A stretch of 64,000 nucleotides of DNA, taken from positions 3,387-67,386 of the forward strand of contig JBOGCG010000057.1 of assembly GCA_051656625.1 (NCBI GenBank). The letters run 5' to 3'. This stretch comes from Sarcina sp. (GTDB lineage Bacteria; Bacillota; Clostridia; Clostridiales; Clostridiaceae). The position numbers and the translations under genes are program-made. The notes below the pieces were generated by a model. The model was given only the letters and a program-made list of their open reading frames with translations. It was not told the origin of the DNA and did not search any database. Below are positions 32,523 through 33,281 of the stretch, in pieces; positions within the stretch are counted from its first letter, which is position 1; every line of letters begins with the position of its first letter.

Positions 32523-32741
32523 TTATTTTACAAATAATAATATTATCGCAACAACTAATCCGTATATCGCTGTTGCTTCTGCTAACCCTGCTCCTAGTAT
32601 AAATGTACTTTGAATTTTATCCATCATTTCTGGACGTCTACCTATACCTTCACAAGCACCTTCAGCAGCCATACCTATTCCTATTCCTGCTCCTATACTT
32701 GTTACAACAGCAAGACCTGCTCCTATTACTCCGATATCCAT
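32523..32741 (-). CDS. atpE: Fo c subunit, canonical Glu-containing copy (c3)
   Basis: GAGIGIG, RRPE loop, LAEATAIYG (GAA codon at 32577-32579). Confidence 0.95.
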   Translation of the reverse strand: MDIGVIGAGLAVVTSIGAGIGIGMAAEGACEGIGRRPEMMDKIQSTFILGAGLAEATAIYGLVVAIILLFVK

Positions 32742-32823
32742 AAGCTTACCTCCTTTTTTTGTTTTTTACTACAATATTACTTACAATATCACCTTTATTT
32801 TATCGAATAAAATTTAATTTTTT

Positions 32824-33042
32824 TTATTTAACAAATAATATAATTATCGCTATTATTAATCCATATATAGCTGTTGCTCCACAAAGCCCTGATGCCATAA
32901 TGAAAATAGCTTGTATTTTACTAGCCATATTTGGCTGTTTAACTGTTGCTCTAATAGCACCAGCAGTTGCAATTCCTGTACCTATACCACCACCGATACC
33001 TGCTAATGCAGCAATACCTGCAGCTAGAAGATTTACATCCAT
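32824..33042 (-). CDS. atpE: Fo c-subunit paralog lacking the carboxylate (c2)
   Basis: [12 protein letters not shown] loop, LCGATAIYG (GGA at 32878-32880); GGAGG SD. Confidence 0.9.
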
Positions 33043-33056
33043 GCCAATACCTCCTC

Positions 33057-33281
33057 TTATTTAACGAATATAATAATTATCGCTACAACTAATCCATATA
33101 TAGCTGTTGCTCCAGCAAGTCCAGTTCCCATTATGAATAAACTTTGTATTCTACCTGCTAATTTCGGCTCTTTAGTCATTGACTTAATTGCCTCGGAGGT
33201 TGCAATTCCTGTACCTATTCCTCCACCTATACCTGTCATAACAGCAAGTCCTGCTGCTACAGATGCTAATCCTGTAATCAT
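33057..33281 (-). CDS. atpE: Fo c-subunit paralog lacking the carboxylate (c1)
   Basis: [12 protein letters not shown] loop, LAGATAIYG (GGA at 33111-33113); GGAGGTG SD. Confidence 0.9.

Follow-up and report, generated by a model that had tools for sequence, protein, structure and literature searches.

An F-type ATP synthase operon of Sarcina sp. raises the question of why one enzyme should be encoded with three different c subunits, two of which lack the mid-membrane carboxylate of an ion-carrying subunit c. The operon is located on the minus strand of a stretch of 64,000 nucleotides, here called the window. It has the order atpB-c1(Gly)-c2(Gly)-c3(Glu)-atpFHAGDC, and thus encodes a full F1Fo set of subunits a, c, b, delta, alpha, gamma, beta and epsilon (Table 1). 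A previous sequence-only reading described three intact single-hairpin atpE genes between atpB and atpF, each with a strong Shine-Dalgarno sequence, and the open reading frames, the Pfam matches and an AGGAGGT placed 6-7 nt upstream of each ATG all agree with that description. The site codons are GGA in c1 (33111-33113) and c2 (32878-32880), exactly where that reading had placed GGA instead of GAA, and GAA in c3 (32577-32579), the only one of the three that retains the carboxylate.

Table 1. Features of the Gly-type F1Fo operon in the window
Feature	Position	Strand	Description
Shine-Dalgarno of c1	33289-33295	-	AGGAGGT
Shine-Dalgarno of c2	33049-33055	-	AGGAGGT
Shine-Dalgarno of c3	32748-32754	-	AGGAGGT
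atpB, subunit a	33303-33980	-	225 aa; essential Arg kept (LRLWGN)
atpE1, c1	33057-33281	-	74 aa single hairpin; Gly57 at ion site, LAGATAIYG
atpE2, c2	32824-33042	-	72 aa single hairpin; Gly55 at ion site, LCGATAIYG
atpE3, c3	32523-32741	-	72 aa; Glu55 at ion site, LAEATAIYG; H+-type motif
atpF, subunit b	32000-32479	-	
atpH, delta	31459-31998	-	
atpA, alpha	29937-31445	-	nucleotide-binding and Arg-finger motifs intact
atpG, gamma	29014-29874	-	
atpD, beta	27604-28998	-	P-loop and catalytic Glu motif intact
atpC, epsilon	27185-27592	-	
small hydrophobic ORF	26900-27175	-	83-91 aa by start choice; directly 3' of atpC
terminator-like hairpin	26861-26902	-	19 pairs, operon end; consensus match only

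All three c genes score well above the PF00137 cut-off of 24 bits (c1 51.5, c2 50.2, c3 68.7), and in the alignment to this model each has the GxGxGxG hairpin motif of subunit c. The glycine of c2 aligns with the ion-binding Glu of Acetobacterium woodii subunit c, a site that we number 61 (E. coli numbering). No carboxylate has moved to the facing place on helix 1 of c1 or c2 (Gly24, Thr28, Gly61). A structure model of c2 predicts a two-helix hairpin (helices 3-35 and 37-71, pLDDT 74) whose fold matches are c-ring chains, none of them at E 0.001, with chains of PDB 4BEM as the best; the best PDB sequence matches of c2 are 4BEM chains as well. Criteria for Na+-type c subunits given in a 2026 preprint (Q/E in helix 1 and E[STQ][STQ]xxY; bioRxiv 10.64898/2026.10.01.756066) do not describe c3, which has Ile in helix 1 and EATAIY at its site, so that H+ coupling is predicted and identity as a Na+ ATPase was rejected. 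An N-ATPase or alternate F1F0 was likewise rejected, as scores for TIGR03306, 03321, 03322 and 03323 were far under cut-off and the operon has the standard gene order without beta and epsilon first.

Two flanking regions deserve comment. The small hydrophobic ORF that follows atpC has no Pfam family match, and its homologues (46% identical) were found only at loci L060 and L064, which together with the window make up one three-gene subclade; it possibly serves the three-gene enzyme as an additional membrane subunit or as a factor in its assembly. Upstream of atpB there is a very AT-rich intergenic stretch of 935 bp (33981-34915) that separates the operon from divergent L-serine dehydratase genes. 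Long gene-free leaders are also frequent before other operons of this type and are possibly regulatory; a promoter scan, with 59 sites where 54 were expected, was uninformative.

The sequence-only reading had proposed looking for the same gene order in related genomes, and the order does recur. When one genome of each prokaryote species was scanned with a degenerate pattern, 22 matches were obtained, of which 18 are F operons with a glycine-site c gene in 14 other genomes and four are unrelated genes. With the window this amounts to 19 intact F1Fo operons in 15 genomes, comprising the Sarcina lineage and four Clostridium genomes. The scan patterns were tuned to this family and are blind to Gln, Asn, Asp, Lys, His or Tyr at the site and to distant families. 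Given that glycine occupies the site in 18 further operons of 14 other genomes, sequencing error or chance is excluded. Within the window's genus the motif occurs in 11 of 20 genomes, and within a second genus in 4 of 120; named carriers include Sarcina ventriculi (L068), Clostridium massiliamazoniense (L060) and C. thermobutyricum (L057, L067). All c genes of these operons encode 72-77 aa, each with its own start and stop. One Gly gene of the LCG type precedes the Glu gene in 13 of the 19 operons and two Gly genes do so in the other six, in the order AG-CG-E (window, L060, L064) or CG-AG-E (L063, L068, L075); the c2-like CG type is common to all 19. Of 59 relatives retrieved by a protein search, 16 have Gly and 43 have Glu at the site, and the named Gly ones belong to Sarcina or Clostridium. 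A looser pattern has matches, as pattern matches alone, in four more genomes (G076, G254, G255, G260), two of three matches in a metagenome pattern scan were unrelated genes, and no relative was found in viral contigs.

Several additional features of these loci were observed. Four genomes carry two different Gly operons from two subclades (L057 and L067; L058 and L071; L074 and L077; L070 and L073), and the genome of L070 and L073 additionally carries an ordinary operon. C. massiliamazoniense likewise has a Gly operon as well as an ordinary one. The second Gly subunit of the S. ventriculi group (L068:7112-7345, L063:1581-1814, L075:7111-7344) has a three-residue insertion before the loop, and the end of its helix 1 resembles the Glu partner, so it is perhaps a chimera. 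Another genome of the same family (G346) has three separate F operons (L092, L093, L094), two with Na+-like c motifs. In seven genomes of the window's genus the ordinary single-c operons encode a delta of 81 aa (about 179 aa elsewhere) on a long branch, with alpha directly after (L046:3649-3894, L047:3806-4051, L048:6369-6614, L051:2937-3182, L052:2273-2518, L087, L091).

The sequence-only reading had also asked whether c1 and c2 evolve neutrally, and Nei-Gojobori comparisons instead give strong purifying selection, with dN/dS of 0.016-0.04. When the window is compared with L060 and L064, c1 has a dS of 1.2-1.4 and a dN/dS of 0.037-0.042 (0.037 for L060), c2 a dS of 0.70-0.78 and a dN/dS of 0.016-0.018 (0.016 for L060), and c3 a dN/dS of 0.068-0.090 (0.090 for L060). 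The other seven operon genes range from 0.094 to 0.434 against L060, all above c1 and c2, and within the S. ventriculi group pairs with dS over 0.2 give 0-0.04. Across 25 Gly genes, including the two of the window, the site codon is GGA in 13, GGT in nine and GGG in three, with no reversion in any of the 25.

The enzyme also appears to be alive. The essential Arg of subunit a, the P-loop and catalytic Glu of beta, and the alpha motifs are present in all 19 Gly operons. Every atpB found in S. ventriculi (G812, 1/1), in C. thermobutyricum (G382, 2/2) and in three metagenome-assembled genomes is situated in a Gly operon, as is every single-hairpin c gene found in these genomes, which are drafts where an operon may have been missed. 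Thus, Gly operons are the only F-type operons found there, and the enzyme is unlikely to be dead. Expression, which the sequence-only reading had named as a point on which its interpretation depended, is indicated by RNA-library contigs over the homologous genes of S. ventriculi. Ten runs recorded as RNA contain this stretch or part of it, and all three c genes, within atpB-c-c-c-atpF and with the Gly codons unchanged, lie on a single contig in X5 (6717-8077) and again in X6 (6335-8122); these contigs derive from a relative rather than from the window and show neither a single transcript nor levels, and their depths cannot rank the genes. Runs X2, X5, X6 and X7 belong to one study, and a second study (X4, X8) covers the c genes in pieces. 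In X5 and X6 the upstream intergenic stretch and the gene after atpC are without contig cover, and the c genes are not present in the raw reads of X20. Taken together, the Gly-subunit system is real, conserved and probably functional.

The window's genome, which is 81% complete, also carries an ordinary single-c F operon with the order atpI-B-E-F (G000:C96), to which the window operon is 36-77% identical per subunit. It additionally contains a V-type operon (G000:C21), in whose K subunit the first hairpin carries Gly at its site; we read this blank site as a parallel solution.

How the two types of subunit relate to each other is evident from trees and from individual residues. In a c-subunit tree of 73 columns, a short alignment that leaves many forks open, the 25 Gly subunits group in a single clade (97/99) and the 19 Glu partners in a second (97/98), with 15 single-c subunits apart from both. 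The CG-type subunits have G24, T28, C60 and G61 in 19 of 19 cases, which indicates that the Gly pocket was remodelled and more than knocked out. Ancestral residues are divided between the partners: the CG type keeps T32 and Q42, having lost R41 in all 19 and E37 in 18, while the Glu partners have lost T32 and Q42 in all 19 and keep E/D37 in 18 and R41 in 14. In 18 of 19 operons the Gly type carries a basic residue at position 37 and its partner an acidic one, and at L061 the charge is swapped in both genes, a single event of the pattern that direct neighbours would show. This co-divergence of the Glu partner indirectly supports a heteromeric ring. No matching change was evident elsewhere in the enzyme, as a comparison of 19 Gly with 10 single-c operons for diagnostic compensating changes in a, b, delta, gamma, epsilon, alpha and beta gave only two positions, and in subunit a only I3V with no diagnostic change in the channel, which speaks against a mixed rotor.

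The Gly cases share one origin and so are not independent of each other. The two three-gene arrangements differ in gene order and the free tree separates them, but an AU test does not reject one clade (p 0.354), so we do not claim convergence of the three-gene layouts. On both alpha+beta+gamma+a trees, the first with 3 of 49 loci dropped as incomplete and the second with 17 more removed as near-duplicates or long branches, the Gly operons need two changes, with the S. ventriculi group apart.

The F1Fo of fermenting clostridia functions mainly in proton export. We favor, at a probability of roughly 55%, a reading in which the Gly operons encode an H+ rotor of mixed subunits that has fewer sites in each turn. 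It would be the F-type counterpart, made from separate genes, of V-type rotors and would be used for ATP-driven proton export. Gly and Glu subunits would stand side by side in one ring, like the hairpin pair of a V-type subunit but from separate genes. Only c3 would carry a proton in the mixed ring, with fewer H+ per ATP as the predicted result, and a blank hairpin would pass the a-subunit Arg without exchange as F1 supplies the torque. With equal incorporation into a ring of 10-12 hairpins, H+/ATP would drop from 3.3-4.0 to 1.7-2.0 for the two-gene form or to 1.1-1.3 for the three-gene form. Computed stall gradients, which assume 10-12 hairpins and a phosphorylation potential of 45-55 kJ/mol, are 117-171 mV for an all-Glu ring, 233-342 mV for a 1:1 ring and 350-513 mV for a 1:1:1 ring, in line with the principle that fewer ions per ATP give a higher attainable gradient (PMC9171764). 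Hydrolysis of ATP would thus export protons against a steeper gradient, and the enzyme may serve pH homeostasis in acid beside the ordinary F-ATPase where that is kept. A result that counts against a mixed rotor is that engineering a single E56Q hairpin into the fused c10 ring of Bacillus PS3 abolishes ATP synthesis (PMC8809890), as this implies that ordinary F-type motors tolerate blanks badly.

A more specific version of the low-gear rotor, which we put forward tentatively, would have its three hairpins encoded separately and placed in a fixed, repeating order, with one site in three and ~1.1-1.3 H+/ATP. This would be a reinvention of the V-type low gear that is tunable by the Gly genes, and possibly the pump behind acid survival of Sarcina ventriculi and its kin. 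Such a ratio would fall below all F-type ratios in the cited literature (2.66-5.6).

An unlikely alternative, although one to be taken seriously, is that the Gly subunits are assembly or seam subunits that replace the lost chaperone AtpI. As such they would nucleate or close the ring or form a bridge to subunit a, and the mature ring would contain none of them, or one or two copies, with the gear little changed. The sequence-only reading had raised an assembly role as its own alternative, and this is strengthened by the absence of atpI from all 19 Gly loci, including the window, when it is matched in 22 of 30 single-c loci. Genome-wide searches of genomes that lack an ordinary operon also gave no atpI in G010, G011, G148 and G122 (by family, 0/4) or in G812, G813 and G382 (by protein, 0/3). 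The S. ventriculi operon lacks atpI even though it occupies the usual chromosomal place, and the blank of A. woodii occurs once per ring (PMC9171764). However, atpI may have been lost once or twice in the history of one lineage. The GxGxGxG packing face and the two helices are fully conserved, the ribosome-binding sites are equally strong and six operons have a second Gly gene, all of which goes beyond the needs of a chaperone. The reciprocal change in the Glu partner moreover suggests a lasting contact over many interfaces.

Distinctly less probable is a mixed ring that arose without adaptive gearing, in which duplicates lost complementary interface features and so became obligate partners. 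Such constructive neutral evolution is known for fungal V-ATPase proteolipids. These fermenters would use the enzyme solely for ATP hydrolysis and so would tolerate a lower site number, and complementary retention of ancestral residues in two clades, the single origin and the lack of a clean link to acid genes are all compatible with it. On the other hand, fewer protons per ATP are costly unless the gradient is needed. The Gly operons have moreover been retained as extra copies beside an ordinary operon, duplicated (two in four genomes) and found in a second genus at varied chromosomal places, and this retention, duplication and spread points to a benefit.

We also consider it very unlikely that the blanks act as a valve or brake, that is, that a blank-bearing ring is not driven by the gradient and blocks H+ inflow or leak at low outside pH, or else uncouples hydrolysis. 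Loop Arg41 of subunit c couples to F1, and its replacement in every CG-type subunit fits this idea. The failure of synthesis in PS3 c10 with a single carboxylate-less hairpin (PMC8809890) fits it too. But the Arg and channel region of subunit a are kept, and a pure plug has no need of a conserved Glu partner (dN/dS 0.02-0.09). Furthermore, A-type enzymes with one site per two hairpins make ATP at 90-150 mV (PMC9171764). A valve is partly compatible with the low-gear rotor if the latter is a one-way pump. Finally, the chance that c1 and c2 are recent pseudogenes or sequencing errors is negligible and this reading was rejected on conservation and dN/dS: the window's genome is only 81% complete, but dS values of 0.7-1.4 are accompanied by dN of 0.013-0.053, 25 intact genes occur in 15 genomes, and the Gly codons are present in RNA-library contigs of the relative S. 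ventriculi.

The low-gear rotor has partial precedents. The F/V-hybrid c-ring of A. woodii and Clostridium aceticum (c1 plus c2/c3; PDB 4BEM) is also encoded by several atpE between atpB and atpF (PMC7911925), and a carboxylate-less hairpin lowers the ions per turn there (PMC7911925, PMC9171764), as it is predicted to do here. The A. woodii ring is described as nine single hairpins and one double hairpin with one site (PMC9171764). Its blank is fused to a site-bearing hairpin (the four-helix c1), has Glu replaced by Gln, occurs once per ring and goes with Na+ and the presence of atpI. In contrast, the Gly operons have stand-alone blanks with Glu replaced by Gly in a remodelled pocket, encoded by one or two genes, with a co-diverged H+-type partner and no atpI. 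Thus, of the features of an A. woodii-type rotor, several atpE with a carboxylate-less hairpin are found, while fused c1, Na+ coupling and atpI are not. A. woodii, the single bacterial precedent that has been solved, has one blank in 11 hairpins and so a change in ratio of ~10%, against the two- to threefold change predicted for the Gly operons, and this difference counts against the mixed rotor.

The V-type and V-like A-type proteolipids (Enterococcus hirae NtpK type; Eubacterium callanderi A1Ao) likewise have one site per two hairpins, which is read as a low pumping gear (PMC9171764; bioRxiv 10.64898/2026.10.01.756066). Blank and active hairpins of these proteins are in one polypeptide and fixed at 1:1, unlike those of the Gly F-type operons, where the products of separate genes would need to alternate through the specificity of their interfaces and a ratio of 2:1 is conceivable. 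For the eukaryotic V-ATPase three paralogous proteolipids, c, c' and c'', are proposed to occupy one ring with fixed neighbours. Each of these keeps its essential Glu, whereas two of three in the window are without it.

Site dilution as such is a broader theme, since fused site-poor c subunits were common among the best 150 of 1778 metagenome matches in a profile search, with patterns such as EQQQQ, EQQ and ESGG and one Glu in 3-5 hairpins. They differ from the Gly subunits in being fused, mostly with Glu to Gln, and in belonging to other lineages (one cluster is from Cloacimonadota). We did not find such fused multi-hairpin F-type-like c subunits from metagenomes in print. Within the same best 150 of 1778 (P0060-P0208), many have 3-13 hairpins, often with one Glu in 3-5. 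P0062 (968 aa, 13 Glu hairpins) has Trp in place of many glycines, as would be expected if a recoded TGA had been translated under the wrong code. P0176 (72 aa) is a further stand-alone hairpin that resembles subunit c but is unrelated and has Ser at the site; its genomic context was not found in 400 genomes of the class. A search of the open-access literature turned up no account of the Sarcina operon or of F-type c subunits that stand alone and lack the carboxylate, and the main text of the 2026 preprint has no mention of Sarcina (bioRxiv 10.64898/2026.10.01.756066). What is new here is the split-gene, H+-type, two-blank and co-diverged form in cultured species.

The acid context of the Gly operons is suggestive. 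A glutamate decarboxylase gene adjoins 4 of the 19, all four in one subclade, and there is no such neighbour at the S. ventriculi-type loci L068 and L075 or in the window. At the level of genomes, glutamate decarboxylase is present in 8 of 10 Gly-positive versus 4 of 7 Gly-negative genomes (3 of 20 not scored), and this link was set aside as not discriminating. Two glutamate decarboxylase genes are located elsewhere in the window's genome (G000:C27:86006-87289 and G000:C81:22289-23578). The physiology of S. ventriculi at low pH is reportedly the subject of a paper of its own. Its cytoplasmic pH falls to about 4.3 at an outside pH of 3, and an acidifying cytoplasm would lessen the need for a very steep gradient. 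S. ventriculi is also associated with gastric disease (PMC11582621). The interpretation first offered, that site-less c subunits dilute the ring and aid acid tolerance, has gained partial support from selection, expression and recurring gene order, while low-gear acid export itself is still a prediction and its link to acid genes is weak.

Textbook F-type rotors are rings of one subunit, each with a carboxylate, and natural stand-alone blanks would depart from that. The cultured carriers S. ventriculi, C. thermobutyricum and C. massiliamazoniense make three questions testable, namely what determines the sequence and copy number of distinct subunits in a ring, how the a-c motor gets past blank hairpins, and whether a drop in ions per ATP converts an F-type synthase to a dedicated pump, a step proposed for the origin of the V-type ATPase. 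The two-gene and three-gene natural versions provide a graded series for this purpose. The operon is also a candidate mechanism for the life of Sarcina in the stomach and for the acid tolerance of butyrate fermenters.
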